Below, in pieces: positions 27,192-46,599 of a stretch of DNA of 59,196 bases (position 1 is its first letter; every line of letters starts with the position of its first letter). The notes under the pieces are model-generated. The model saw only the letters and a program-made list of their open reading frames with translations, did no database searches and was not told where the DNA came from. The stretch is taken from NCBI GenBank assembly GCA_037445065.1, contig JBBILD010000022.1, positions 1-59,196 on the forward strand, read 5' to 3'. The position numbers and the translations under genes are program-made. The stretch comes from Myxococcales bacterium. GTDB lineage: Bacteria; Desulfobacterota; Binatia; HRBIN30.

Positions 27192-28769
27192 TCAGATAAA
27201 GCGTTTCATCTGGGCCCAGAGGCTGGCCGCAGGAAGGCGGGGAAATCGAGCCAGGAGAATGGGTGCCCCGTCCTCCCGGCACCAGTCGCAGCGGAACGTT
27301 GCAAGCCGCCTCACTTCAGAAAACTGGCCCCGGGCATCCTTTTCAGGAAAGCCGATGAGCAGAAACGCTTCGTCCCACTCTTGAGGCCGCGCCCAGTACC
27401 AGTACTGATTGTGCACACTTGCGATTGTCGGACGAGTGGTGGCGTTGAGAAACAGTTCCAGTGCCGCTGCTTGCCCATAATTCGCCGTAACCACGACGGT
27501 TCGGGCCCGAATGTCTGAGGGAAGGCTCGCCCACGTTACCTGGACCAAATCGGCGAGTTCGTTCCAACCATAGCGGTCCGCCAAATGTTGGGGCAAAACG
27601 GCTGGTGCGGACCGTTCCTCGCGCGGAACGCCAACCGGCAGCAGTGTCACGTACCGGGCGGTTGCTGAAGCTGGCAACAAAGGCACTGCCAGGGGAATCC
27701 CAGCAAGCTGGAGGACAAAAAGGAGGCTTGCCAGAGACGCGCTGAGAACCCGATGCTTCGTCAAAAATACGGTGCGGGAGAGCGCTGCGGCGCCCAGAGC
27801 GATTCCAAGGGTGTGGGCTGGCACGAGGTAGTAACTTCTTGCAGCCGGGCTGGCGGTTAGCAGGATGGCATTGGCCGCCACGACTCCACCGAGGACGAAT
27901 GCAGGGCTTCCAAGTTGCCCCCGCAAGCCCGCGAAAGCTCCGTATGCAGAAAGCAAGCACGTTAATGGGCCGGCGCTGATCAATTGTTGGGGGATGAAGG
28001 TGAGCGGCGAGCTGTGCTGCATTTTGAGCTGGGTAGCGTTGCGAACGAACTCCGCCGCGGGGAAGCCGTGCGTCATCTGCCAGTAGAGCCAAGGCAGGCT
28101 GCCAACTGCCACCAGCGCCAGCGCAAGCAACGGAGTCAAGCGAATCGAGCTTTTGCCGCTACTGACCAGCGAGGCCAGCGCGACGAGGGGCGCGATCATC
28201 CACAGCATGCTGACTTTGTTGTGGAAGCCGACTGTACCGACAAGGCCCGCCGCGGCCCACGCTATGCACGCCGCGCGAACGTTAGACGCCTGCAGAGCGC
28301 CGATTGCGAGCAGCGCAATCGCGATCCAGAAAATGGGTTCAAGCGCGTTCATCGAGTAAAATCCATGCACTCCGGCGAAGATCGGTGAGGAGAAGACCGC
28401 GAGGCCGGCGACCAACGCGGTGCGCGGATCGGCTCCTAGTTGTCTGCCCAGCAGGACCACGCCCGCAAGCGTGAGGGCTCCGCAGGTGGCAGCAAACCAA
28501 CGTAGAGCTTCCAGGGACGCGGAGGCCCAAAGCAAACCCCGCAGGAGCAGCACGGAAAAGGACGGATGGTCGACGTAGGACCAAGACAAACGTCGCGCGC
28601 ACGCCACGTAGTACAGCTCATCGCGAAACCAGCCTCCGTGGGAGGCCACGAGGTGCAGCGCAATCTTCAAGATGACCAGTGCGAGCAGGAGCTTCCAGGG
28701 AAACTTTGGGTTCGGACGATCGGTGGGCCCGACCGTGCAGTCACTGACTTCTAGCCTGCTACTGGCCAT
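27192..28769 (-). CDS. GT-C fold membrane glycosyltransferase (family 39/ArnT-like)
   Basis: FRDELYY...YVDHP first loop, many TM helices, C-terminal NYGQAAA..HNQY.YW. Confidence 0.85.
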   Translation of the reverse strand: MASSRLEVSDCTVGPTDRPNPKFPWKLLLALVILKIALHLVASHGGWFRDELYYVACARRLSWSYVDHPSFSVLLLRGLLWASASLEALRWFAATCGALTLAGVVLLGRQLGADPRTALVAGLAVFSSPIFAGVHGFYSMNALEPIFWIAIALLAIGALQASNVRAACIAWAAAGLVGTVGFHNKVSMLWMIAPLVALASLVSSGKSSIRLTPLLALALVAVGSLPWLYWQMTHGFPAAEFVRNATQLKMQHSSPLTFIPQQLISAGPLTCLLSAYGAFAGLRGQLGSPAFVLGGVVAANAILLTASPAARSYYLVPAHTLGIALGAAALSRTVFLTKHRVLSASLASLLFVLQLAGIPLAVPLLPASATARYVTLLPVGVPREERSAPAVLPQHLADRYGWNELADLVQVTWASLPSDIRARTVVVTANYGQAAALELFLNATTRPTIASVHNQYWYWARPQEWDEAFLLIGFPEKDARGQFSEVRRLATFRCDWCREDGAPILLARFPRLPAASLWAQMKRFI

Positions 28770-30615
28770 TTTCCGCGCGCACTTCCACTAAGGCAGCGTG
28801 CAGGAGAGGGATTGCTTCCCGGTAGTCCGCAACCAATCCGTAGTCGCAATGCCGGAAGATAGGGGCACGAGCATTGCGGTTGATGGCGACCACGACCCCT
28901 GCTCGCCGAAAGCCCACGTTGTGTTCGAAAGCCCCGCGGATTCCGACGGCGATGTAAAGTCTTGGAGCGATCGAGCGCCCAGTCAATCCGACCTGCACGT
29001 GACGCGGCAGCCACCCTTCGTCGGCCACGTCGCGCGTGGTGCACAACGGTGCGCCCAGAAGCGCCGCAAATGTGCGGAGCAGTTCTAAATCTTCCGGGGC
29101 AACGCCTTTGCCGACTCCGACGACTACCTCTGCCTCGTCCAGCGCGCTTCCAGCTTGCGGGATCTCGCGGTAAGCAAGGGCTTCGGCTTTAGGCGCGGCG
29201 GCCCGCGCAAGTGTTTTTCTTTGGACCTCACATCTTGTCTCGCTTCGACCGTCAGGAAGAGGAAAGACTCCCGGTCGAACTGTGGCCATGGCCGGTCGAG
29301 TGCGGCAGGTAATCAGTGCCGCAATGGTACCGCCGAAGGCAGGCTTGTACTGGAGCAACTGGCCATTGTCGCCGAGGCCGAGGTCAATGCAGTCTGCGCT
29401 GAGGCCCAGCTCCTTTTCGGCGGCAACCACCGCTGCCGCGTTGCGCCCGAGCCAGGTAGACGGGAAAAGGACTATTTCCGGTTCCCAAGTGTCGATTGTT
29501 TCCGAGACTGCTGCGGCGAGGTCTTGAGGCCAAATGATTTTTGATTCCGTGGCTGTACTGAAGCTGTAAGCAAAGAGGACGTCGACCCCGTCCCGACCCC
29601 AGTCCGATGGGTCCGATGAAGCCCAATCCGCGATGACGAGTCCGACAGCCCCACCTAGGGAATCGGCCAGCTGTCGGGCTCGGTTCACGAGTTCGCGGGT
29701 CACTCGAATCCCTCCGTCGTGGCTAGGGTCGGCTACGACCAGAGCTCGGCCGTGGAGTTGCGGTACCGCTCGTGGCGGGATGGGAGCGAGGGGCGGCGGA
29801 GAGGGCACCTTCCATGACCCGAACAAACCGCAGTCTCGAATCAGAATCCCCGCAAGTTCGCGCACTCCATCGTTCAATGAGGGCGCCGCAATGGTCTTTT
29901 GTAAGCGCTGAGTCGGTAGATCGATGAGTTCGCGAACCTGGGTTGGCGACCCAGCCGCTCCGACTTTTTTAGGGTCGACACCCGCCATGTTTGCATCAAA
30001 GGTGACAAGCGGTTTTGAGCGAGCCTGTTCTAACTCTTCTCTGCTCGGGAATCTTTCTGCCGCGATGCCCTCGGTCACGGTGATTAGAAACGGCGGGGTT
30101 ACGCGAAGGATGAGGATGCCGTCGTCAGTTTCGCATTCCAGATCGAAGACCAGCCTTTCGGTGGGAGCGATGCTCATGCGCTGCACCTGCGCATAACAGG
30201 GCACACCGAGAAGAGTCGCGAGTTCTGGACCGAGCTGCGCCGTTTCAGCGTCCACGCTATACCGCCCGCACAAAATCACGTCGGGTCGTTCCTGCCGAAC
30301 GATAGGATGCAAGGCATGAGCCGTGGCGAGTACATCAGAACCCGCGAACACGGGATCGCAGACGTGGATTGCTCGGTCAGCGCCTAAGGCCAGACAGTGT
30401 TCTAGTGCGACCCGGGCCGTTGGTGGGCCGAGCGTGACCGCGACGACTTCGGATGCCACGCCACCGGCGCGTAACGTCACAGCGTAATTCAAGGCACGCG
30501 CGTCGAAGGAGTTCACCTCTAGCGCGACGCCCTCGCGCTGGAGCCGCTTGGTGACTGGGTCCAATCGCAAGCTGGCAACGTGTGGGACAGGTTTCACGCA
30601 CACCAAAAGGCGCAC
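28759..30615 (-). CDS. Fused electron transfer flavoprotein beta+alpha subunit
   Basis: Beta: VCVKPVP, FAGSDVLATA, DAETAQ, GSPT. Alpha: LSADC, KPAFGG, TVRPG, QVGLTG, GIRGAFEH, AINRN. AAGGAGG RBS before GTG 30615. Confidence 0.88.
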   Translation of the reverse strand: MRLLVCVKPVPHVASLRLDPVTKRLQREGVALEVNSFDARALNYAVTLRAGGVASEVVAVTLGPPTARVALEHCLALGADRAIHVCDPVFAGSDVLATAHALHPIVRQERPDVILCGRYSVDAETAQLGPELATLLGVPCYAQVQRMSIAPTERLVFDLECETDDGILILRVTPPFLITVTEGIAAERFPSREELEQARSKPLVTFDANMAGVDPKKVGAAGSPTQVRELIDLPTQRLQKTIAAPSLNDGVRELAGILIRDCGLFGSWKVPSPPPLAPIPPRAVPQLHGRALVVADPSHDGGIRVTRELVNRARQLADSLGGAVGLVIADWASSDPSDWGRDGVDVLFAYSFSTATESKIIWPQDLAAAVSETIDTWEPEIVLFPSTWLGRNAAAVVAAEKELGLSADCIDLGLGDNGQLLQYKPAFGGTIAALITCRTRPAMATVRPGVFPLPDGRSETRCEVQRKTLARAAAPKAEALAYREIPQAGSALDEAEVVVGVGKGVAPEDLELLRTFAALLGAPLCTTRDVADEGWLPRHVQVGLTGRSIAPRLYIAVGIRGAFEHNVGFRRAGVVVAINRNARAPIFRHCDYGLVADYREAIPLLHAALVEVRAENGQ

Positions 30616-30775
30616 GAACGAGACTCCTCCTTTTCTAAAGATAAACGGCACTCGTGTAGGTCAGGAGGACTGACTCAACAAGTGCGCGCCCCGAAAACTT
30701 CGATGGTGAGTTCGTGCTGGTTCGTGTTAACAACGCAACGCAGCATCAGCTGAGTAGCTACGGGAGAGGAACGCG

Positions 30776-32184: not shown

Positions 32185-32312
32185 AGGCCTAATCTCCTTT
32201 TTGGGAGAGCGGAGGAACCAAGGAATTTGGGGTGAATCTCGGGACGGATCGTTTCGAGTAGGGTAACTCTTTGAACCCGAACCCGTCAGCTAACTTCGCC
32301 GGCCTTCAAGGA
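32185..32312 (+). ncRNA. Cyclic di-AMP (ydaO/yuaA) riboswitch
   Basis: Ordered conserved blocks GCCTAATC...GAGCGGAGGAACC...TTGGGGTGAATC...GTAGGGTAACTCT...ACCCGAACCCGTCAGCTAACTTCG, closed by AGGCC/GGCCT. Lies upstream of a cell-wall enzyme gene. Confidence 0.88.
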
Positions 32313-32388
32313 GAGGGGTCGAGCTAAGGCTCGGCCGGCTGAGAGCGCCTCTCCAGGCGTCGCAAGAGACAAATGGAGGGCCAACTCG

Positions 32389-32934
32389 ATGGACAGACAC
32401 GGTAGTGCGAGGGTTCGCTTTGGCCGCCGTGTGCGCGGTCGCATCCTGACCGCGAGTGTGTGGGCCGTCTTGCTCGCGTTGCACTTTCCCGGTGACGTCA
32501 GGGCCAGCGGTGAGGCAAAGAAAGTCCAGCGGAGCGCCAAGAAGCCCGCCCCGGTGAAATTGGTCAAAGCTTCGTGGTACGGTGCTCGCTTCCACGGGAA
32601 AGTTGCCGCAAATGGAAGGCCATTCGACGCGCGGCGTCTGACTGCTGCCCACCGATCTTGGCGACTTGGCTCAAAGGTGCAGGTTCGCAATCCGAGGAAC
32701 GGGAAAGCTGTCGTGGTAGAAATCACGGATCGCGGGCCATACGTACGCGGAAGAGAAATTGACTTGTCGTACGAGGCTGCGGCTCGCCTGGGCATCCTGC
32801 ATGCCGGGGTTGCGCCGGTGGAGGTGGAGATTCTTCCAGAGAAGGTGTCATCGCGGCAGGGGAGTGGGGAACCGATTGTGGTTGCCTCAGCAAGCCGAGT
32901 TGGCCTGGTTTGGCCGCGAGCCATTGCGAGGTGA
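32389..32934 (+). CDS. rlpA: Septal ring lytic transglycosylase RlpA family (DPBB domain, no SPOR)
   Basis: ASWYG..FHG..AANG, TAAHR, DRGPY..GR.IDLS..AA..LG. Confidence 0.9.
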   Translation: MDRHGSARVRFGRRVRGRILTASVWAVLLALHFPGDVRASGEAKKVQRSAKKPAPVKLVKASWYGARFHGKVAANGRPFDARRLTAAHRSWRLGSKVQVRNPRNGKAVVVEITDRGPYVRGREIDLSYEAAARLGILHAGVAPVEVEILPEKVSSRQGSGEPIVVASASRVGLVWPRAIAR

Positions 32935-33773: not shown

Positions 33774-34187
33774 GATTGCTCGCCTGCCGGCGATGCCTTT
33801 AGAACCGAGCCGTGTTTACCATTGCCGTGGCCCCCTGCCCAGGCAAGCCTGGGGTTTCCGAATTGCGGAAATCGGTCGGACAGGCGGTAGGTCTCGGGCG
33901 GCGACCGCAACAAAACCCTCGGCGCCCGTCTCTGGGCAGAACATTTCTTTCTAGGGGCCTCTACAACGCGCAAGCGGGCTTCCGATCTGCACAAGAAGGG
34001 CTCCACGGGTCGAAAGGCAGAGGATGCTGTCGGTGAGCGCGAAGACTGGTCGCGTTGGCGACGAGCTCTTGTGGCAGTGAGGGTGGGCCCACATCGACCT
34101 AGAGAAAACAAGCGAAATCCGCCGTGTGAGTACAAGCTTTTCTGGTTGTAGTTGCGCTAACGTCATGCGAAGAAGCGGTGGGTGCGA

Positions 34188-36887
34188 ATGGGGCGTAGGC
34201 AAAGGCTGCGGAAGCGGGCGCGGCGGTGGGTTGCTTGGTTCGGTACGACCCTGGGGGCGCTTTTAGGGATCTTGTTCGCAGCGCCGCAGGGGAGGGCCGA
34301 AGGGTGCGGATTGGGCGAGGCGGCAGACGGATGGATCGCGCAGTTGTTCGGTACGGTCCCCGCCCTTCCATGTTTGGCACTGGATGTGGGAGTGCCTGAG
34401 GACAGTCGTGTATCGGCTGCTGCTTTGGTGAGGCTCGCGCACGTCTGGTTTGCAAGCGAGCAGGGACCGCAGGTCGTTTACTTTGGATTAGCAGGTGCCG
34501 ACGGATCCGTGATTGCACCGACGCTGGTAGAGGGTGGCGTTCCCGTCTTCACACGGCCCGGAGGCAGCGGCTTCCAACTGGTCGTCGAGGCGGCTCCTGG
34601 TCCTCAGGGGCGTGCCGTTGGGCTCTTTGTGCCGCAGGCCGGCCCTGTGCCAGAGCCTGGGCCGGATGTGCGAATCCAGGCCTCGCAAAGCGTTGGAGAC
34701 GGCAACCCAGTGCCATGTGAAGGAGGAGTTCCGGGCGTTCCGGTCTTTCGTCTCGAGGAGGATGCGACAAGCCGTAGCATTGCGTCGGACTGGGCTTGTG
34801 GAGCAGTTGCCAATCCAAACGTTGGCCGTGCTTGCACGGTTGATGAGTTCGGCCTGCCTCGATTCGTGGCAGCAGGGCGGGCAACGGCGCAGTTCTGTTT
34901 GCCAGTCACGTCTTCTCGGGCGTTTCCTCTCGGTGAGACATGGCTGATGGCGAGGGTGCGGGACGTCAGCGGCGTGGTGGGTATACCGCGTTGGCTCAAG
35001 ATTCGGGTGGGAGCCACGGCGGTGCCAGCGCCAACCTCGACGCCCACCATCACACGCGTGGTGTCAGCGACCCCCTCGCCGTCGTCCTCGCGCACCGCCT
35101 CGCCAACGCGCAGCGTTGTTCCGTCTCGAACTGCTACTCTCTCGCCTACGGCGAGTGCGACGCGAACCGCACGGACTGTGAGCCCCGGTCCCAGTCCTTC
35201 TGTAACGTTGACCGTTCTCCTGGCGGCTACTCCGACCCCTACTCGAGTCCCTGAGCCAACTACCGCGCTGCCTTCGCGGAGCCCGACTCCGACGGTGAGC
35301 GCTTCGGAGGCGCCTACAGCTACTCCGACTCGCGTACTTCCGTCTAGCACGCACTCTGCAACCGCAACGCAAAGATCCCGGAGAACGCGGACACCGCGCC
35401 CCACGTGGTCCTTGACAGCAACGCCGTCTGTCCTGGTGACGCCGAGCGTCACCTCGAGTCGAACTCAGACTCCGTCCCCTACGGCGAATCCATCCGATGC
35501 ACGAACAGTCACCACAAGCCCAACCGTGTCCCGGTCGCCGACACCGACCCGAACGCTCACGGCCCGTGCTGCCACAGCGACCTGGACGCGGTCTGCGACG
35601 GCCACCCGAACACCGACCTATACGTGGACGGCGTTGGGTACGCGGACCTTTACGGCGACGCGCACTCCGGTGCCAACGGGGTCACCGACTCTACCTCCAA
35701 CGGGTATTGCGACATTCACCCCCACTTCTACTCCTTCATCGACACCGAGTCGAACCCAGACGCGCACCCGTACCCCTACTGCAACGGCTCGCCTCGGGCA
35801 GTCGCCGACTGCGACGGTGACCGGAGTCCTCCCCACCGTGACAGCTACATCCACGGCGACGGCCTCCGCGTCGCGAACGGCGAGCAGAACTCGTTCACTG
35901 ACACCGACGCGAACCTTCTCGCGCACACCGACTGTTTCTCCAACTTCCTCGCTTAGCCCGACGAGCTCTCTCCCTCCTTCACCATCTTTCAGCGCAACGC
36001 CCAGTCGGACGCGCTCCTCCACACCCACGCCGTCGCATACGCCATCTCCGACGTTTACTTGGTCACCGCGGCCGACACCGACGTTTACAAGTTCTCCGAC
36101 ACACTCCCGAACGCCACTTCCATCGCGCACCCCGACCATCTCGCCGACACCAAGTTTCACCCCGACCTTTACGGCAACACGTTCGCCCTCGATGACTCGC
36201 ACGCCGAGCAGCACTCCGTCGGTCACGCTTTCCCCCACCGCGAGCCGAACCCCGAGTGTGACCGCGACGCCCACGGCGACCGTTCCGCCCGAGCCAAGAA
36301 TCGTCTATTTTGGGCTGGTTCGTGCCGACGACCAAATTGTGCCTGCGACCGGCACGACACCCGAAGGATGGCCCGTGTACGAGCGGCCGTTTGGCTCTGG
36401 CTTTTCCATCGTGCTCGAAGCGCAACCCGGTGGGGCGGGAACTGCGCTCGGGCTGTCCACGTTCCAATGGAATCCTGGCGACCCGTCGGTCTTACCCGAT
36501 TTGGCGATTGTCTCGTCGCGGCCGCTGGGCAATGGCTCCACCGCGGTGTGCGATGACCAGCCTCCACGCCTCGGTGGTGTGCCCGCTGCGCAATGGGTGT
36601 CCGTCCTTCCGCCACCGCAGGAAATTGCTGACGCAATCAACGACTTGGCCTGTCGATTCAAGAACGGCTTAGGAATGACGAGCGGTCGCGGCCGGGACGA
36701 GGCATGTAGCGCCTTTCAGGATGGGACGTACCGGTTTGTGGTAAATACCGCTACTGTGCAGTTCTGTGGATTCGTGAACGAATCCATCGCATTCCCACCG
36801 GGAGAGACGGTGCTGACGGCTCGTGTCCGCGACACAGCGGGGCGATGGAGCGAAGCGGGGAGTATCGTTGTGCGAATCGTTCCCTAA
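34188..36887 (+). CDS. Secreted protein with two homologous Cys-containing domains joined by a long Thr/Ser/Pro stalk
   Basis: Basic N-region plus hydrophobic signal. Repeated motifs YFGL..AD, GSGF..V.EA.PG, QFC, AFP.GET.L.ARVRD on either side of a TPT/TRT low-complexity region. Confidence 0.8.
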   Translation: MGRRQRLRKRARRWVAWFGTTLGALLGILFAAPQGRAEGCGLGEAADGWIAQLFGTVPALPCLALDVGVPEDSRVSAAALVRLAHVWFASEQGPQVVYFGLAGADGSVIAPTLVEGGVPVFTRPGGSGFQLVVEAAPGPQGRAVGLFVPQAGPVPEPGPDVRIQASQSVGDGNPVPCEGGVPGVPVFRLEEDATSRSIASDWACGAVANPNVGRACTVDEFGLPRFVAAGRATAQFCLPVTSSRAFPLGETWLMARVRDVSGVVGIPRWLKIRVGATAVPAPTSTPTITRVVSATPSPSSSRTASPTRSVVPSRTATLSPTASATRTARTVSPGPSPSVTLTVLLAATPTPTRVPEPTTALPSRSPTPTVSASEAPTATPTRVLPSSTHSATATQRSRRTRTPRPTWSLTATPSVLVTPSVTSSRTQTPSPTANPSDARTVTTSPTVSRSPTPTRTLTARAATATWTRSATATRTPTYTWTALGTRTFTATRTPVPTGSPTLPPTGIATFTPTSTPSSTPSRTQTRTRTPTATARLGQSPTATVTGVLPTVTATSTATASASRTASRTRSLTPTRTFSRTPTVSPTSSLSPTSSLPPSPSFSATPSRTRSSTPTPSHTPSPTFTWSPRPTPTFTSSPTHSRTPLPSRTPTISPTPSFTPTFTATRSPSMTRTPSSTPSVTLSPTASRTPSVTATPTATVPPEPRIVYFGLVRADDQIVPATGTTPEGWPVYERPFGSGFSIVLEAQPGGAGTALGLSTFQWNPGDPSVLPDLAIVSSRPLGNGSTAVCDDQPPRLGGVPAAQWVSVLPPPQEIADAINDLACRFKNGLGMTSGRGRDEACSAFQDGTYRFVVNTATVQFCGFVNESIAFPPGETVLTARVRDTAGRWSEAGSIVVRIVP

Positions 36888-40083: not shown

Positions 40084-42921
40084 TCAGCCTGTGATTGCCG
40101 AGCAGCTCTGTTCGTCCCACTCCGGCCGGAAAAACGTTTCCGTCTTTTGGATCCGCACGCGTCTGGCGTCACCTTCAGTCAAGCCAAGGCACAGGGTCAA
40201 GAGTTGCGTGGGACGAAGTGTCCCCTGTTCTGTCTTGCGGAGGCGCACCCGCAGAATGCTCCCGTCGAACTGCAGAGACAAGATTTGTTCGCGGAGGTTC
40301 CGCGCCCTGGTTCCGTTGCGGTTTTGCACGGAAAACCACAGCTCTGTTGCAGACAAGATGTCTTGGATACGTCGTTGTACCGTTTCTTGATCGAACACTG
40401 CACTGATCGGCGCGAGATCGAAGTCGTAAGCGAAACCCTCGATCCGAGAATCGAGGGAAGGGCCGCGAAGCGGTACTAGCCAGGCGTCCGTGATATGAAT
40501 GCCGGCCGGCAAATGCCGGTTCATAGCGTCGGGAATCCGAGTGTTCGAAACGCATTCCGAGAAAAACACCTCACAGTACTCGGCGGCACTCTCCACTCCA
40601 AACGGCGCGGCTGGACCAAAAGAAATCCGCGGCAGTGGGTGGTGGCCACGGCTAAAGGTCACGGGTAATCGACTCAAGCGAAGGGCGCGATAGAAAGCAT
40701 TGGTGACTTCAAGGGAACCAAGAAACTTTGCCCGCCCCACCTTCTGGTAGCGTAGACGGTAACGAGCTCTTACCACCTCCGCTCCCTGCGTTTCGGATGT
40801 CACCGGGGAAAGCCGATGTTCTCCCTTTGCACCCAGCCATTCCTCAGCATTGCCCATCGGTTGGGGCGATTGGGGCGGCATCGGTGTGTTACGGTATCCT
40901 TGCGCCTGGTCTGCACGTGGTCGAGGGGCATGCGATAACGAGTGCCCTAACAGCTCCGGAGCGTGAACTTTTTTCCAGCCGCGTGGCTCCCAAGCCGGCG
41001 AATCGGCGGGCTCGCCGATGACCGAGCTCGCCCAGGTGCGAATGTTTTCGCCACGATGCTCGGCTGCTTTTGCCCCGGTTATGTGAAAATCAACGTTACG
41101 GATGACCTTGAAGTCGCAGGCGCCGCAGTACGTGCACCGTTGTACACTGCAGTCGGGAGTCAGAGTCCCTTCGAACGCTCTCGCGAGTTCACGATGGAGA
41201 AATTCTTTGCTAACGCCGCTGTCGAGGTGGTCCCAAGGCAACGGCTCGTCCAGGCGACGCCTGCGCAGCTCATGGTCGGGATCGATTTCCGTCTCAGCGA
41301 ATGCCTGAGACCAGAGGTCAAAGCGGCACTGGTCCTGCCAGCCATCGAACCGGCATCCGAGGCGGAATGCATGTTCCAGGGCATTAGCGAGTCGCCGGTC
41401 CCCACGCGAAAACACTCCTTCGAGGGCAGAAAGGCGCACGTCGTGACAGCGGAACACAATGCCGCGCTGCCACAGGCGGGCCCGTAGGAACTCTTGTCGT
41501 CTGCCGAGTTCCGTCGCGTCCACCTGGCGGAGCCACTGGAAGGGTGTGTGCGCTTTGGGAACGAAATTCGAAACGGAGGCTACGACCTCCGCTCCGGGCG
41601 GGGCAACGGCGCGTACACGTGCGCAGAGTTCGACGATGGCATCCAAGTCTTCTTCTGTTTCGGCGGGCAGCCCGATCATGAAGTAGAGCTTAAGGTGCCG
41701 CCAGCCCAAGGAAAAAATGAGTTCGGCCGCCTCGATCAGTTCTGTTTCTTGGTATTCCTTTTGGATGACGTCACGAAGCCGTTGACTGCCTGCTTCCGGC
41801 GCCAGCGTGAAGCCAGTTTTCCGAACCCGACGGATTTGCTCCAGTAGCTGGGGGGCCAGTGCATCTACTCGGGTCGATGGCAACGACACTGCCACTTGGT
41901 CCTTTTGCAGCCGATTCATCAATTCCGCCAGTACCGGATTGATGCAACTGTAGTCGCCGGTGCTCAGACTCAATAACGACAGTTCCTCCTGTCCCGTCCG
42001 CTTTGCTGCCAGAACGGCCTCGTGGAGGACGCGTTGCGGGTTGCGTTCTCGCAGTGGGCGGTAAATGTAGCCAGCCTGGCAGAAACGGCAGCCTTTCACA
42101 CAGCCCCGCATGACTTCGATCGCTGGCCGGTCATGCACGACTTGCGCAGTGGGGACGATGAACGTTTCTCGTACGGGGATCGAATCCAAGTCCGCGACAA
42201 CGCGTTTTCGGACCCGATCTGGCGCCGAGTGGCGTACCGGCTCGGTTCGAACCAGCTCCCCGCGTTGACTGTAAACCGGGCGATAGAAAGCAGGTACGTA
42301 GACTCCACGGACGGAGGCAAGCGCGTCCAGCACGTCGATCCGCCGCCCCGTTCGGCTCGCCTGCAGATAAGCGTCGCAGATTTCGTGAACAGCTTCCTCA
42401 CCATCGCCTAGAAGAACGGCATCTAAGAACTCCGCGAGCGGCTCAGGATTGAAAGCGCAGGGACCGCCTGCGAGCACAATCGGGTGATGGTCGCTGCGCT
42501 CAGCCGAGCGGAGGGGAATCCCCCCAAGCTCGAGCATGCACAACAAGTTGGTGTACGTGAGTTCGTATTGGAGCGTAAATCCGACAATGTGGAATTCGGC
42601 AAGCGGCGTAAACGTCTCGAGTGAGACCAGAGGCAGACCTGCCGCGCGTAACTGCTCCTCTAAGTCCAGCCACGGTGCAAACACCCGCTCGGCGTAAGTA
42701 TCGTGACGCCGGTTCAGAACATCGTACAAGATTTGCAAACCAGGGTAGGACTGCCCGATTTCGTACACATCGGGGAAGGCGAGAGCGAAGCGCAAGCGTA
42801 CCGACTGGGGGTCTTTGATGGCACGGCCGGTCTCCGTGCCCAAGTAGCGAGACGGTTTTTGGACGAAGGGCAGAATGTTTTCGTAGGCTGCCTCCCATCT
42901 CGACCGAACTGAACCACTCAC
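40084..42921 (-). CDS. TIGR03960-type radical SAM protein fused to a TIGR03936/DUF2344-type domain
   Basis: KPSRYLG, FPDVYEIG, RGCVKGCRFC, APEAGSQRLR, LPWDHL, C..CG.C, then FSRGHHPLPRISFG. AAGGAG RBS before GTG 42921. Confidence 0.88.
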   Translation of the reverse strand: MSGSVRSRWEAAYENILPFVQKPSRYLGTETGRAIKDPQSVRLRFALAFPDVYEIGQSYPGLQILYDVLNRRHDTYAERVFAPWLDLEEQLRAAGLPLVSLETFTPLAEFHIVGFTLQYELTYTNLLCMLELGGIPLRSAERSDHHPIVLAGGPCAFNPEPLAEFLDAVLLGDGEEAVHEICDAYLQASRTGRRIDVLDALASVRGVYVPAFYRPVYSQRGELVRTEPVRHSAPDRVRKRVVADLDSIPVRETFIVPTAQVVHDRPAIEVMRGCVKGCRFCQAGYIYRPLRERNPQRVLHEAVLAAKRTGQEELSLLSLSTGDYSCINPVLAELMNRLQKDQVAVSLPSTRVDALAPQLLEQIRRVRKTGFTLAPEAGSQRLRDVIQKEYQETELIEAAELIFSLGWRHLKLYFMIGLPAETEEDLDAIVELCARVRAVAPPGAEVVASVSNFVPKAHTPFQWLRQVDATELGRRQEFLRARLWQRGIVFRCHDVRLSALEGVFSRGDRRLANALEHAFRLGCRFDGWQDQCRFDLWSQAFAETEIDPDHELRRRRLDEPLPWDHLDSGVSKEFLHRELARAFEGTLTPDCSVQRCTYCGACDFKVIRNVDFHITGAKAAEHRGENIRTWASSVIGEPADSPAWEPRGWKKVHAPELLGHSLSHAPRPRADQAQGYRNTPMPPQSPQPMGNAEEWLGAKGEHRLSPVTSETQGAEVVRARYRLRYQKVGRAKFLGSLEVTNAFYRALRLSRLPVTFSRGHHPLPRISFGPAAPFGVESAAEYCEVFFSECVSNTRIPDAMNRHLPAGIHITDAWLVPLRGPSLDSRIEGFAYDFDLAPISAVFDQETVQRRIQDILSATELWFSVQNRNGTRARNLREQILSLQFDGSILRVRLRKTEQGTLRPTQLLTLCLGLTEGDARRVRIQKTETFFRPEWDEQSCSAITG

Positions 42922-43037
42922 GGGTTGCTCCTTTAGCGCGACATGGGCCCGCGACAAGCGAGCGGCACTGGGTCCCACTGGTCAGGGATGCTGCTTTCTC
43001 GTTATTCTGGGCAAAACTCGATTGAGGAGAGAAAAGT

Positions 43038-43646
43038 GTGGCGGCGTCCGTCTTGAACTCGAAAGTGTTAGTGCTGAATCGGTCCTTTTTGCCGGTTCAC
43101 ATCACCTCAGTTAAGCGGGCATTTTGTCTGCTGTACCAGGGGCTCGCTCACGCCGTGGATGAGCAGTACCGGACGTTCGATTTCGAGAGCTGGTCTGCTC
43201 TGTCGGCGAGCATCCATGACGAGAAAATCGGTTGTGTGGACCGGGTCATCCGGGTCCCGCGGGTCATTCTGCTGTTGGCGTATGATCGAGTTCCGAAGCG
43301 GAGGGTTCGGTTCAGTCGTTTCAACATTTACAACCGCGACAGAAACACGTGCCAATACTGTGGGCGCGTATTTCCCCGAAGCGAACTAAACTTGGACCAT
43401 GTTATCCCGCGCTCCCAGGGCGGCCGTTCCACCTGGGAAAACGTCGTGTGCTCGTGCCAAAGCTGCAATCGGAAGAAGGGCGGGCGTACACCTGAACAGG
43501 CGGGAATGAGGCTGCTCCGGCCGCCGAGGAAACCGGAGTGGACGCCGTTCATGCTCGAAACGTTTAGCCTGCGACGATACAAAGAGTGGGTACCGTTCTT
43601 GTCGATGGTGGACGCGGCTTACTGGAACACGGAGCTTCAAGAGTAA
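43038..43646 (+). CDS. HNH endonuclease family protein
   Basis: VLVLN, RD.NTCQYCG, DHVIPRSQGG..WENVV.SC..CN.KK. Confidence 0.9.
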   Translation: MAASVLNSKVLVLNRSFLPVHITSVKRAFCLLYQGLAHAVDEQYRTFDFESWSALSASIHDEKIGCVDRVIRVPRVILLLAYDRVPKRRVRFSRFNIYNRDRNTCQYCGRVFPRSELNLDHVIPRSQGGRSTWENVVCSCQSCNRKKGGRTPEQAGMRLLRPPRKPEWTPFMLETFSLRRYKEWVPFLSMVDAAYWNTELQE

Positions 43647-43651
43647 GTTGT

Positions 43652-46339
43652 TCATCGGTCGGTGGCGGAGAAGTTGCGGGCCTCGATCCGCAGCGCGTAC
43701 GGCGATTCTTCCCCGGTGATCCGAGCGAGTACCTTCATCAACGGATAGGCCGGCTCGACGTCGTGCGCGCCAACGCCGACCGGGGTGAATTCCGATCCTT
43801 GGGCAGACCAAAGTCGCGTGTTCCAGTCTTGAATTCGTTGGCGGGCCTCGGCGTATGCCGGTTCTGCATAGACATCTTGGAGAGAAATCAGCGCGTTGGA
43901 GTCGACGAACACGCGGAGTCCAACTTCCAGGCCTCTGCTCCGGACGGTCGCGACCGCTTCGGGGAGCGGCTTTGGCAAGAGCATCATGTAGTGAGAGCCT
44001 CGCTCGTCGCCTTGCGTAAGGTAAAAGCCGTCCCGCATTAGCGAGAAGATTGGCTCGACCAGTGTTCGAACTCCCAAGAGGACAGGGTCGTCTTTGCCGA
44101 CATACTCTCCCCCGGCAATGACGGCGAGCTTCTCGGTCGACGCGGCGAGAAGCATGCGTCCGAGCAGCTCCCGGATCTTCCGCGGGTCCTCGACCGGCCC
44201 CGGGAGCGCCCAAAGCCGCTTCACGTTGAATAAATTGGTTGCTCCCAGCAAAGCCTGTAAAGCTGGGCGATGGCACCGAGCGTCGAGAAAGATGCGCCGA
44301 TGTGCGTGCACATCGAAGATTTCGAAAGCAATGCTCTCGCCATAAGCAGAGCGGAACCCTGGGTCTTCTAACGCGGTCTCCGCCGCTCGGAACAACGGTA
44401 GATTGAAGGCGGCCGGACCAGCTTTATCTGCTGCAACAAGCGCAAAATCATTTCCTCCGTCAAGTGGGAGTTCGGCAAACCCCGGCCCCTGTCCGGTCAC
44501 GTTTCCAGCGAAGGGTTTCGTAATTCGTGCTGTACTCAGGCCCTGCTGCCAGCGGTGAAAGGACGCCTGTAAACGATCCCAGTGCGACCTTTCCGGGGAA
44601 GGGAGGAAATCGCGGAGCAGCTCGAGGAAGCGTTGACTCGGCTGTGCCAGCTCTTCGACCGCTTTACCTTTCGTGGCTGGACCGATCTTCAGATCCTGCG
44701 CGAGGCCGTACGGTTTGTAACCGATCGTCTGCGTAACCCATACGGTGCGCCAAAAGGTCTGGAAAGCGAACAGGTGGATCTCATTGGCGTCCACTCCCTG
44801 GTCATGGGTCATCAGTAAGTGCAAGTCATCGCCTACGGGAAATGTGTGGCCATCTCGCAAAAGTCCTTTTTCTTCTGCCTCGGCCAGACAAGCCTGCGCA
44901 ACCGAGACAAATACCGTGGGTGGCGCAGTGTGCCCTAATTTCCCTCCTGCGTCGGCTTTGATGTCCGTAAGCGTGCGCCCCCCGGAACGCTCCCGGCAAC
45001 GTTGCACCAGCGGGTCGGCTTCTCCCGACTCAGTTTTGGGGATCGGCTCAAAACAGCCCTCCAACTGCAGCGCTTGTGCCTTGGCGCGCCGTTCCGCTTC
45101 CTCCGCGACGACAAACGGCTGGAACTCTCCGTGTTGGCACATGCACCGCGCCAGTTCCAAAGCTTGTGCCTGAAGCCAGCCGGTTTCCACGGGATCTTGG
45201 GCGAACAGGTCCACAACGTCGTGTGGGGGCGGGATCACGCCATTGTTATAAGATTGGTACGAGTACGCAGCCAGCCTGCATAAGCCTCGACCGGAACGCG
45301 TGGCCCGAGCGTCTGCCAAGCTCACGGGGAGGACGGCGAGGTGGTAGCCATTGTTTGGACCACCGACCGTCAGAGTCGGTTCACCTCCGAGATTGGCGTG
45401 AGCCTCGCCGACAGCGGGCAGCCCGCTCTGTAGCCGCAGTACGCAAGCCGGTCGCACGCCGCCGGACTCTGTGTTTGCCGCGGCCAGACCGACGACCGCG
45501 ACCGGTTCGTGTCGAGTCGGTTGCCATTGGTCAGCGTCGCGGACGAACCGCCCGCGAACCGCATACACTGCGCTAATGGCCCACTCCACAGGGTTGGCGA
45601 TGAGGGAGAGGAGCTCCGCGATGTCTCCGATCTGTTGCCGGCTTACCAACAAAGGAGACTGCGCCAAGGGATAGAGTAAGGCAAGCACCTCCTCCTCGGG
45701 CCGATCGCCGAAAAGAAACACTCTGCGCTCGTTGCTCGCGGGCGTTGCGAGCGCAGGCAAGTGTTCGACCACTGCGACAAACCGGGTACCGTCGAGCCGC
45801 TGATGCGATCCTTTGTCTGGATGGAAGAACAGATTAAAGAGCATCCGATTGAACCCCCCGGGGGCCCCTTCAACGAGTTTGGCGACCAGGATCGCTTCAG
45901 CGCCTCGCTCGGTATATGGAAACGAGAAGAAGCGGAGATTCAGGCGGCGCCACTGCTCCGCCTTCGGGGCAGACAGAAGATCGGAAACCTGGCTAGCCAG
46001 AGGCCCGTCTTTCTGCGCCTCCTTCAGTACTGCAATCACTGCCTGTTGTAACGCGTCGAGAAGCTCGTGGTCTGCGGTTCCCTCCTGAAAAGCGCTGATA
46101 TGAATGAAAAGGTCAACACCCAACGGAAACAGGCGAAAATCGCGCAACGAGCCCTTGTCTCGTAGGCGCGCTAACGTCTGGCGGCCTGTCTCCACGACTC
46201 GCTGTGGAATTTCAACCGGGTTGCCGAGAAGCCAGGCGATCTCGACACTGGCAATTCCTAGAACAACGCGAGCTTTAGCCTGCTCGGAATTCCAACCTTG
46301 GAATTCGGAATAGATCCTTTTGACCTGCTCCTTGTTCAT
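43652..46339 (-). CDS. Tandem-duplicated class V fructose-1,6-bisphosphate aldolase/phosphatase-like protein
   Basis: C-half: IKADAGG..GH, VGDDLHLLMTH, YGLAQDL, FAGNVTGQGPG, ADK, YVGKDDP, RGSH. N-half: degenerate copy with ERGAE, PGGFN..LF..F..P, RLQSGLPAVGE, HGEFQP. AGGAGGAG RBS before ATG 46339. Confidence 0.85.
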   Translation of the reverse strand: MNKEQVKRIYSEFQGWNSEQAKARVVLGIASVEIAWLLGNPVEIPQRVVETGRQTLARLRDKGSLRDFRLFPLGVDLFIHISAFQEGTADHELLDALQQAVIAVLKEAQKDGPLASQVSDLLSAPKAEQWRRLNLRFFSFPYTERGAEAILVAKLVEGAPGGFNRMLFNLFFHPDKGSHQRLDGTRFVAVVEHLPALATPASNERRVFLFGDRPEEEVLALLYPLAQSPLLVSRQQIGDIAELLSLIANPVEWAISAVYAVRGRFVRDADQWQPTRHEPVAVVGLAAANTESGGVRPACVLRLQSGLPAVGEAHANLGGEPTLTVGGPNNGYHLAVLPVSLADARATRSGRGLCRLAAYSYQSYNNGVIPPPHDVVDLFAQDPVETGWLQAQALELARCMCQHGEFQPFVVAEEAERRAKAQALQLEGCFEPIPKTESGEADPLVQRCRERSGGRTLTDIKADAGGKLGHTAPPTVFVSVAQACLAEAEEKGLLRDGHTFPVGDDLHLLMTHDQGVDANEIHLFAFQTFWRTVWVTQTIGYKPYGLAQDLKIGPATKGKAVEELAQPSQRFLELLRDFLPSPERSHWDRLQASFHRWQQGLSTARITKPFAGNVTGQGPGFAELPLDGGNDFALVAADKAGPAAFNLPLFRAAETALEDPGFRSAYGESIAFEIFDVHAHRRIFLDARCHRPALQALLGATNLFNVKRLWALPGPVEDPRKIRELLGRMLLAASTEKLAVIAGGEYVGKDDPVLLGVRTLVEPIFSLMRDGFYLTQGDERGSHYMMLLPKPLPEAVATVRSRGLEVGLRVFVDSNALISLQDVYAEPAYAEARQRIQDWNTRLWSAQGSEFTPVGVGAHDVEPAYPLMKVLARITGEESPYALRIEARNFSATDR

Positions 46340-46599
46340 CGAGCGCTCCTCCTGATCTCTGACCCCTAATCGCTTCCTGCATGGGGCGTGCTCTGTCTCC
46401 CGGCTCCCTATTTTCCTCTGGTTGAGCAAGGGCGCAACGCGGTTTTCTACGTACCACAAGCTCCGAGTGCGGGGGAATAACTCGGGTTTTGGGAAGAAGA
46501 AACACAGAGCATCCCCCTGCGCGCCGCAGACCTTGCAGCCATTGACAGAAACTGTGAACTTGTAGTTCAAGTGCGGTGTCAACCGGCGCGAGTGGTGGC

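Follow-up and report, generated by a model that had tools for sequence, protein, structure and literature searches.

The stretch of DNA analysed here (the window) comprises 59,196 nucleotides of contig JBBILD010000022.1 from a Myxococcales bacterium, placed among the Binatia in the GTDB lineage. On its minus strand lies a gene for an unusually long relative of fructose 1,6-bisphosphate (FBP) aldolase/phosphatase (FBPA/P). The open reading frame (ORF) at this locus, 43652..46582, begins with a TTG codon and encodes 976 amino acids (aa). An ATG codon at position 46339 gives a protein of 895 aa (P0001; gene at 43652..46339, stop codon at 43652-43654), and this is the likely start because relatives from other loci (L002, L010 and L014) align from residue 1. 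Public databases label such proteins plainly as 'fructose 1,6-bisphosphatase'. In Pfam, the protein matched FBPase_3 (PF01950) in four stretches with 228.9 bits against a cutoff of 25 (E 1.3e-67), which is above the gathering score. The NCBIfam equivalog for FBPA/P, NF041126, matched piecewise, and its 222 bits lay below the cutoff of 520.

A search with the whole protein found 245 proteins at E<=1e-3 among 8,000 scored candidates, and nearly all of the 120 relatives listed were 827-932 aa long. From these 120 we took the proteins of 820-940 aa, minus the identical P0002, as a set of 108 full-length fused relatives and split them at residue 445/446; the canonical set consisted of 22 single-domain enzymes, hand-picked among the search matches. 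A direct BLASTP comparison of the N half with the C half gave 30 bits (E 1e-4, 27% identity over 121 columns). Because this was too weak alone, the halves were compared as profiles using hhalign. The N-half profile matched the canonical enzymes with a probability of 99.9% and E 1.4e-32 over about 360 columns, residues 23-435 lying on canonical residues 3-368 of 383, and the C-half profile matched them with a probability of 100% and E 1.1e-53 over about 345 columns. A phmmer search of the PDB placed residues 5-97 and 99-321 of the Sulfolobus tokodaii chain on residues 456-550 and 607-834 of the query; a second match placed residues 235-341 of the same chain on residues 297-411, within the N half.

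Structure prediction gave the same picture. An AlphaFold2 model of the full chain, built from an alignment of 60 sequences (A1), had a mean pLDDT of 87.9 and a pTM of 0.89, and its best seven matches in a Foldseek search of the PDB were the seven FBPA/P entries (TMt 0.74-0.79). The N half was also modelled alone from an alignment of 29 sequences (A2; pLDDT 87.9), and the same seven entries came out on top, with E 2e-22 to 2e-18 and TM on target of 0.69-0.77. Both halves are full-length class V FBPase (FBPA/P) domains. The original prediction, made from the letters of the sequence, had described a protein of about 895 aa with two series of FBPA/P motifs, and profiles and models bear this out. 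The boundary it had drawn at 44974/44975 falls between residues 455 and 456, exactly where the C-half homology starts. It had also allowed for an N half without the FBPase V fold; the fold is there, as the seven matches to the isolated N half show.

The N half (residues 1-440) is encoded at 45020..46339 and the C half (residues 456-895) at 43655..44974. A linker of approximately residues 436-455 (44975..45034) fills the space left between the two hhalign matches; AlphaFold2 predicted a helix in it at 443-452. Identity between the C half and canonical enzymes is 27-31%. Mean column identity was 47% in the N half and 60% in the C half, with constraint acting on both. In the C half, QDL and FAGN are separated by about 59 additional residues (551-609, 44513..44689). 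This insertion shows up as a gap in the hhalign comparison, is absent from canonical enzymes and occupies the place of their substrate-lid loop; the A1 consensus shows it to be conserved, and it is predicted to be mostly helical (pLDDT 61-96). In more distant relatives, extra insertions break the match of the C-half hidden Markov model (HMM) into two or three pieces. The N half has a smaller insertion at about 207-236 according to hhalign. Confidence in the full-chain model is low in three segments: 737-748, 777-781 and about 850-870. They correspond to the loops of Lys/Tyr, of RGSH and of the C-terminal Tyr, which are mobile in canonical FBPA/P.

The two halves carry different motifs. From its start, the C half contains IKAD (460-463, 44951..44962), a metal-site motif with Lys and Asp, GH (469-470), the metal-ligand motif GDD (503-505, 44825..44833), YGLAQD (544-549), GN (612-613) and DK (638-639, 44423..44428). 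These are followed by YVGKDD (746-751, 44087..44104), with the Tyr, the Schiff-base Lys and the pair of metal-binding Asp residues, by RGSH (780-783, 43991..44002) and by EPAY (862-865, 43745..43756), the equivalent of the canonical phosphatase Tyr348 loop, where the pLDDT is low. YVGKDD aligned with the canonical Y-x-x-K-D-D in both phmmer and hhalign. The N half reads GVD (74-76) in place of GDD and contains ERGAE (144-148), FNRMLFNLFFHP (163-174), RLQSGLPAVGE (302-312, 45404..45436) and HGEFQP (403-408). Every motif that had been listed for either half beforehand is present in the translation, RLQSGLPAVGE at precisely the positions given for it.

We then followed these residues through 69 tandem units, that is, the 29 of alignments A2/A3 and 40 of the 41 long proteins described below; P0304, whose two domains are more than 1,400 aa apart, was excluded, and P0242 entered with its second N-C unit only. 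We take the canonical metal-binding set to be D11, H18, D52, D53, Q95, D132, D233 and D234, and Tyr229, presumably the Tyr near the Schiff-base Lys, to have its counterpart in Y746. In the C half, K461, D463, H470, D504, D505, Q548 and D549 were each found in 67 of the 69 units (the other two being gaps for K461 and D463), D638 and K639 in all 69, and Y746, K749, D750 and D751 in 68. S782 was present in 67 and H783 in 64, E862 and Y865 in 65 each; position 780 was Arg in 39 units and Asn in 23. According to PMC5080403, Lys232 is essential for the aldolase activity of the canonical enzyme and Tyr348 for its phosphatase activity. In the N half, the columns of the Schiff-base Lys and its neighbouring Tyr hold G294 and E291, which vary across the family, no Tyr aligns with the phosphatase Tyr, and only D76 of the metal set survives (53/69 units). 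The catalytic columns of this half contain varied residues across the 69 units.

The N half has nevertheless kept what the C half lacks. E144 and R145 (45905..45910), whose columns are Glu and Arg in 22/22 canonical enzymes, occur in 65/69 and 67/69 units of the N half and are lost in the C half. The loop RLQSGLPAVGE, the canonical RxQxxxPAxGE, is likewise kept in the N half only, with R302 in 65/69 units and Q304 in all 69; in alignment A1, R302, Q304, G306, A309 and G311 are invariant, and the matching columns of the C half vary.

This pattern was quantified on the 95 columns in which the 22 canonical enzymes showed conservation of 95% or more; a residue counted as kept if 80% or more of the 108 fused proteins had it. 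Forty-six of the 95 columns were kept in the C half only, 14 in the N half only, 10 in both halves and 25 in neither. The C-only set includes (P0208 numbering) K11, D13, H20, D54, Q96, D97, N106, D133, K134, Y230, K233, D234, D235, R267, S269, H270 and Y349, which, the Schiff-base Lys and the phosphatase Tyr apart, we presume to be the residues that do the chemistry. The N-only set is made up of E121, R122, R241, Q243, P247, A248, G250, E251, G138, F167, G289, G303, F312 and L359. Neither domain alone holds all canonical-invariant residues, the C half being without E121, R122, R241, Q243, P247, A248, G250 and E251. The pattern also persists in the far more distant relatives among the 69 units. 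It is clear that all catalytic residues are found in the C half and have been lost from the N half, as had been proposed, and that the proposed complementary degeneration exists, E-R and RxQ being retained only in the dead half in 65-69 of the 69 units. The accompanying claim that the C half had lost whole segments needs correction: the conserved residues are indeed lost, but by substitution and not by deletion. The spacing from DDP to RGSH in the C half is 27 residues compared with 30, and the RxQ..GE segment is thus present, substituted beyond recognition.

In principle, an assembly or frameshift error that merges two neighbouring genes could mimic such a protein, and so could a pseudogene in decay. 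The probability of either is negligible in our judgement, and we rejected both: the reading frame is unbroken, the 245 relatives share length and architecture, both halves are under constraint, and the gene was found in many other genomes, complete chromosomes included. In a survey of one genome per species, 227 pattern matches yielded 81 confirmed relatives at 75 loci. All 75 are in metagenome-assembled genomes (MAGs), several complete Acidobacteriota chromosomes among them, and the ORF was uninterrupted in most loci not cut by a contig end. By their titles, the loci belong to Binatia, Thermodesulfobacteriota/Deltaproteobacteria, Acidobacteriota, Poribacteria, Latescibacterota, Aminicenantes, Gemmataceae/Planctomycetes, Omnitrophota, Elusimicrobia, Nitrospinota and classes of Chloroflexota, although the bin labels of a few are implausible.

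The origin of the two halves was examined in a quick IQ-TREE analysis, for which 15 of the 29 N halves were combined with the C halves of the same 15 proteins and with the 22 canonical enzymes; the resulting tree was unrooted, and its branches were long. The N halves formed one clade and the C halves another (SH-aLRT 100 each), with parallel internal branching. Separate clades that branch in parallel indicate one fusion event followed by co-divergence, and hence that the tandem form arose once. The duplication and fusion suggested from the sequence are shown by the FBPase V fold of both halves. The tree gives no date for the duplication relative to the diversity of the canonical enzymes. Both halves of the studied protein adjoined those of Binatia (L012, L014 and L002).

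No full-length stand-alone protein of the N type was present among the 83 matches of an exhaustive search with the N half. In a search for shorter relatives we obtained many matches at 48-67% identity, and split genes were considered. The 11 C-like short proteins that were checked start within the C half (residues 442-524) and lie mostly on short contigs, so they were set aside as truncated calls, and no convincing example of a split form emerged.

The exhaustive N-half search also returned 41 proteins of 900-4,971 aa. The order of the domains was N-like then C-like in all 41, and in 38 of them the two were no more than about 32 aa apart; in P0298, P0313 and P0304 the gap was about 200-1,100 aa. 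Several of these long relatives also carry TIM, GAPDH, PGM, PGI, transaldolase, PEPCK or sugar-nucleotidyl transferase domains. The tandem unit is combined with TIM and GAPDH in P0261, with TIM in P0267, P0269 and the ORF at L070, with NTP-transferase, transaldolase and PGM in P0264, with methyltransferase, transaldolase, PGI and PGM in P0311, and with ADK and PEPCK in P0285, which has a CsrA-like match as well. Loci from Omnitrophota, Planctomycetales and Elusimicrobia contain uninterrupted ORFs of 1,100-2,500 aa, with the tandem unit inside the single ORF at L044:4009-9198, L052:4831-9234, L065:4468-9369, L070:1318-6576 and L074:4132-11682. Large stretches of these long fusion ORFs of about 1,000-5,000 aa (P0242-P0313 and the five loci) had no Pfam match.

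Two side observations were made on these proteins. The N-half and C-half HMMs place two tandem units one after the other (N-C-N-C) on residues 1394-3024 of P0242 (3495 aa). In P0298, P0304 and P0313, the canonical HMM gave the second domain 167-208 bits, more than the C-half HMM did, and the first domain was nearly as good with the canonical HMM; the three proteins may represent intermediates of the duplication or forms that have diverged less.

The fusions are the best clue to function: a role as FBP aldolase/phosphatase agrees with partners that produce triose phosphates and convert them into each other. They also bear on the idea that the protein uses another sugar bisphosphate as its substrate, or that it catalyses just one of the two reactions. 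The low NF041126 score would suit such a change, as would the lid-region insertion of about 59 aa and the replacement of canonical GNV(R/K) by GNVT/S in 55 of the 69 units. The last of these positions (108), however, varies already in the canonical set, being Arg in 11, Lys in 6 and Thr in 4 of the 22 enzymes. In addition, K749 and Y746 for the aldolase step and Y865 for the phosphatase step are kept in 65-68 of the 69 units, and the TIM and GAPDH fusions point to triose-phosphate substrates. We consider an altered substrate or a single activity very unlikely.

The structure papers of 2004 and 2011 reportedly describe canonical FBPA/P as a homo-octamer in which dihydroxyacetone phosphate (DHAP) forms a Schiff base on Lys232 beside the Mg cluster. 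Mobile loops are then said to rearrange, and the same site to hydrolyse the 1-phosphate with the help of Tyr348. The original prediction adds that in archaeal structures the Gln-Ser/His loop is reported to bind substrate phosphate in the site of the adjacent subunit. By analogy, the C half (456-895) would condense DHAP with glyceraldehyde-3-phosphate (GAP) and then hydrolyse the 1-phosphate as the canonical enzyme does, using the Mg-binding Asp/His/Gln set, Lys749 with Tyr746, S782/H783 and the phosphatase Tyr865. The N half (1-440) no longer has a catalytic pocket of its own and retains E144-R145 and R302-x-Q304(..PAVGE).

Exactly those canonical-invariant residues that are missing from the live C half are retained by the dead N half, which strongly suggests that they act across the domain interface. 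We infer that in the canonical homo-oligomer the E-R and RxQ residues probably work across the subunit interface and that in the fused protein the N half donates them in trans to the C-half site. There, the N-half residues E144/R145 and R302/Q304 would probably bind the distal (GAP/6-) phosphate. Both sides of the reciprocal site would be dead, leaving a chain with one active site per two domains, and such chains probably form a tetramer that mimics the octamer. It seems fairly likely that the C half is the enzyme and the N half a dead paralogue that donates E-R and RxQ to it, with one active site per two domains. The location of the low-confidence loop segments agrees with donation in trans, as does a gain in confidence of the N-half residues 281-320 in the full-length model (pLDDT 90, 87, 92 and 93, compared with 76, 76, 84 and 87 for the N half alone); both are minor points, the second a weak one as the depths of the two alignments differ.

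The N half might instead be only a structural pseudoenzyme partner that maintains the oligomer interface and stabilises the C half, its E-R and RxQ residues serving packing or folding. It is conserved over its whole length, with the mean column identity of 47% given above, and many of its invariant residues, for example Y359, Y361, Q362 and S363, are unrelated to the canonical motifs, as a scaffold would lead one to expect. However, the C half has the same fold and should need folding residues too, yet it has lost them; Arg, Gln and Glu side chains found in 22 or 21 of the 22 canonical enzymes, moreover, look more like ligand-binding than packing residues. A purely structural N half is unlikely in our view.

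Strong purifying selection on a catalytically dead domain is also what one would see if the old N-half pocket had become an allosteric or effector site of a regulated FBPA/P, a role that would be compatible with donation in trans. Some N-specific polar residues are well conserved (K154 in 44/69 units, N164 in 66, Q362 in 59, S363 in 60 and D377 in 64). Most of the metal and phosphate ligands of the old pocket, on the other hand, have been replaced by varied residues and not by a new conserved set, and no search points to any ligand. We regard a regulatory pocket in the N half as improbable.

Several points speak against the N half acting as donor to a canonical C-half site. Every known carrier is an uncultured MAG. 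The NF041126 score of 222 bits against a cutoff of 520 does not license an automatic transfer of function, and with its low identity to canonical enzymes and its insertion at the lid the C half could differ in substrate preference. The conservation of the N half is far above what four donor residues need, so that this half probably does more. The PAxGE part of its loop reads DAGG in a large clade, leaving only E-R and RxQ universal, and R780 of RGSH is Asn in the 23 units mentioned above. Co-variation between Glu at N-312 (45404-45406) and Arg at C-780 (44000-44002) was considered as evidence for a contact between the halves: 38 units had Glu with Arg and 27 had neither, compared with 2 discordant units. 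It was rejected, since these counts come down to about three changes and two to three independent pairs (sign test p 0.5, not significant).

A wider proposal can be built on the donor role, which we put forward tentatively and with somewhat less than even confidence. According to it, the protein would be a covalently locked half-of-sites gluconeogenic enzyme, in which one ancient duplication and fusion left the canonical two-subunit site with its catalytic residues in the C half only and its trans-acting, substrate-binding E-R/RxQ residues in the N half only. This form, rather than the single-domain enzyme of archaea, would be used by many, mostly non-thermophilic bacterial phyla and would serve as a module in giant gluconeogenic assembly lines of Omnitrophota and Planctomycetota (with TIM, GAPDH, PGM, PGI and transaldolase), the dead pocket perhaps having a regulatory role.

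The surroundings of the gene are those of an ordinary chromosome; the window also encodes fatty-acid synthesis, GOGAT, 2-oxoacid:ferredoxin oxidoreductase, SMC, FtsY, RNase Y and a tyrosyl-tRNA synthetase. Synteny was seen with the Binatia loci L012 and L014, with SMC, FtsY and 5-formyltetrahydrofolate cyclo-ligase on one side of the gene and an HNH protein and a radical-SAM/DUF2344 protein on the other. In the window, the HNH endonuclease (202 aa) is encoded at 43038-43646 on the plus strand and flanks the gene also in L012; the radical-SAM protein (964 aa, Radical_SAM_N2 and DUF2344) is encoded at 40084-42978 on the minus strand and flanks the gene also in L012 and L014. Taken with the SMC, FtsY and cyclo-ligase side, this gene order suggests a Binatia-like genome as the source of the window. 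No conserved gluconeogenic operon was found among 107 flanking ORFs from 18 loci, and synteny with the window was limited to L012 and L014. The only gluconeogenic neighbour in the 18 loci was a pyruvate phosphate dikinase (PPDK) directly downstream of the gene in an Acidobacteriota MAG (L053:8423-11248, plus strand). Elsewhere in the window, the ORFs at 34182-36884 (plus strand, 901 aa) and 32289-32924 (minus strand, 212 aa) had no Pfam match at E<=1e-5. A 630-aa ORF at 28762-30651 (minus strand) contains two stretches of the electron-transfer-flavoprotein (ETF) domain and an ETF_alpha FAD-binding domain, and looks like a fused beta/alpha chain of an electron-transfer flavoprotein.

FBPA/P is widely discussed as an ancestral enzyme of gluconeogenesis in archaea and deep-branching bacteria, adapted to heat. 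The tandem protein adds a second, widespread architecture, which occurs in Binatia, Acidobacteriota, Thermodesulfobacteriota, Poribacteria, Latescibacterota, Planctomycetota, Omnitrophota and other groups. The division of residues between its halves amounts to a natural complementation experiment, which points to canonical residues that work across the subunit interface. It may also serve as a clean example of subfunctionalisation, in which a homo-oligomer has turned into a pseudo-heteromer with half the active sites. For annotation, a protein of about 830-900 aa of this kind would count as one FBPA/P unit in pathway reconstructions of these phyla, although it falls below the NCBIfam equivalog cutoff, and the giant multi-enzyme fusions that contain the unit are of interest for substrate channelling.

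The original prediction did not recognise the architecture as a described one, and we found no published description of a tandem or fused FBPA/P in full-text literature searches, which covered few subscription journals and no supplements, so that one could be missed. The words fused, fusion and tandem and the stem duplicat- do not occur in the available part of a 2025 FEMS review (PMC12525153), and the available parts of PMC12965863, PMC9386147 and PMC3543383 do not describe such a protein.

The closest known system is canonical FBPA/P itself (PF01950; PDB 1UMG/3R1M from Sulfolobus tokodaii and 3T2B-3T2G from Thermoproteus neutrophilus), whose fold is the same as that of both halves. The C half shares with it the Schiff-base Lys, the Tyr, the metal ligands, the Ser and His of RGSH and the phosphatase Tyr, and the expected role, gluconeogenesis, would be the same. 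Whereas canonical FBPA/P assembles as a homo-octamer of chains with about 360-400 aa each, the protein studied here joins two diverged copies in a single chain of 895 aa; its N half is without the catalytic set, and the C half is without E-R and RxQ..GE, has the additional insertion of about 59 aa and remains below the NF041126 cutoff.

Among glycolytic proteins, the stramenopile TPI-GAPDH is a multi-enzyme fusion. It resembles those relatives in which a single reading frame encodes the tandem unit together with TIM plus GAPDH, or with PGM, PGI, transaldolase or PEPCK; in contrast, the studied protein has no extra domains, and the fused forms are found in bacterial MAGs (Omnitrophota, Planctomycetota and Elusimicrobia). 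Eukaryotic ATP-phosphofructokinase and the 100-kDa hexokinase I are duplicated and fused proteins with one non-catalytic half, whose dead site binds regulators. They have in common with the tandem FBPA/P a duplication and fusion of the whole subunit with catalysis lost in one half, but their folds are unrelated, and here the dead half keeps exactly the residues that the live half has lost. The trypanosomatid deoxyhypusine synthase and AdoMetDC/prozyme pairs have dead paralogues as partners and active sites shared across the interface. Like them, the protein described here places a dead paralogue beside a live one, with complementary losses and, we suggest, one composite site; whereas the trypanosomatid partners are separate polypeptides in eukaryotic parasites, the two halves here are covalently fused and occur over many bacterial phyla.

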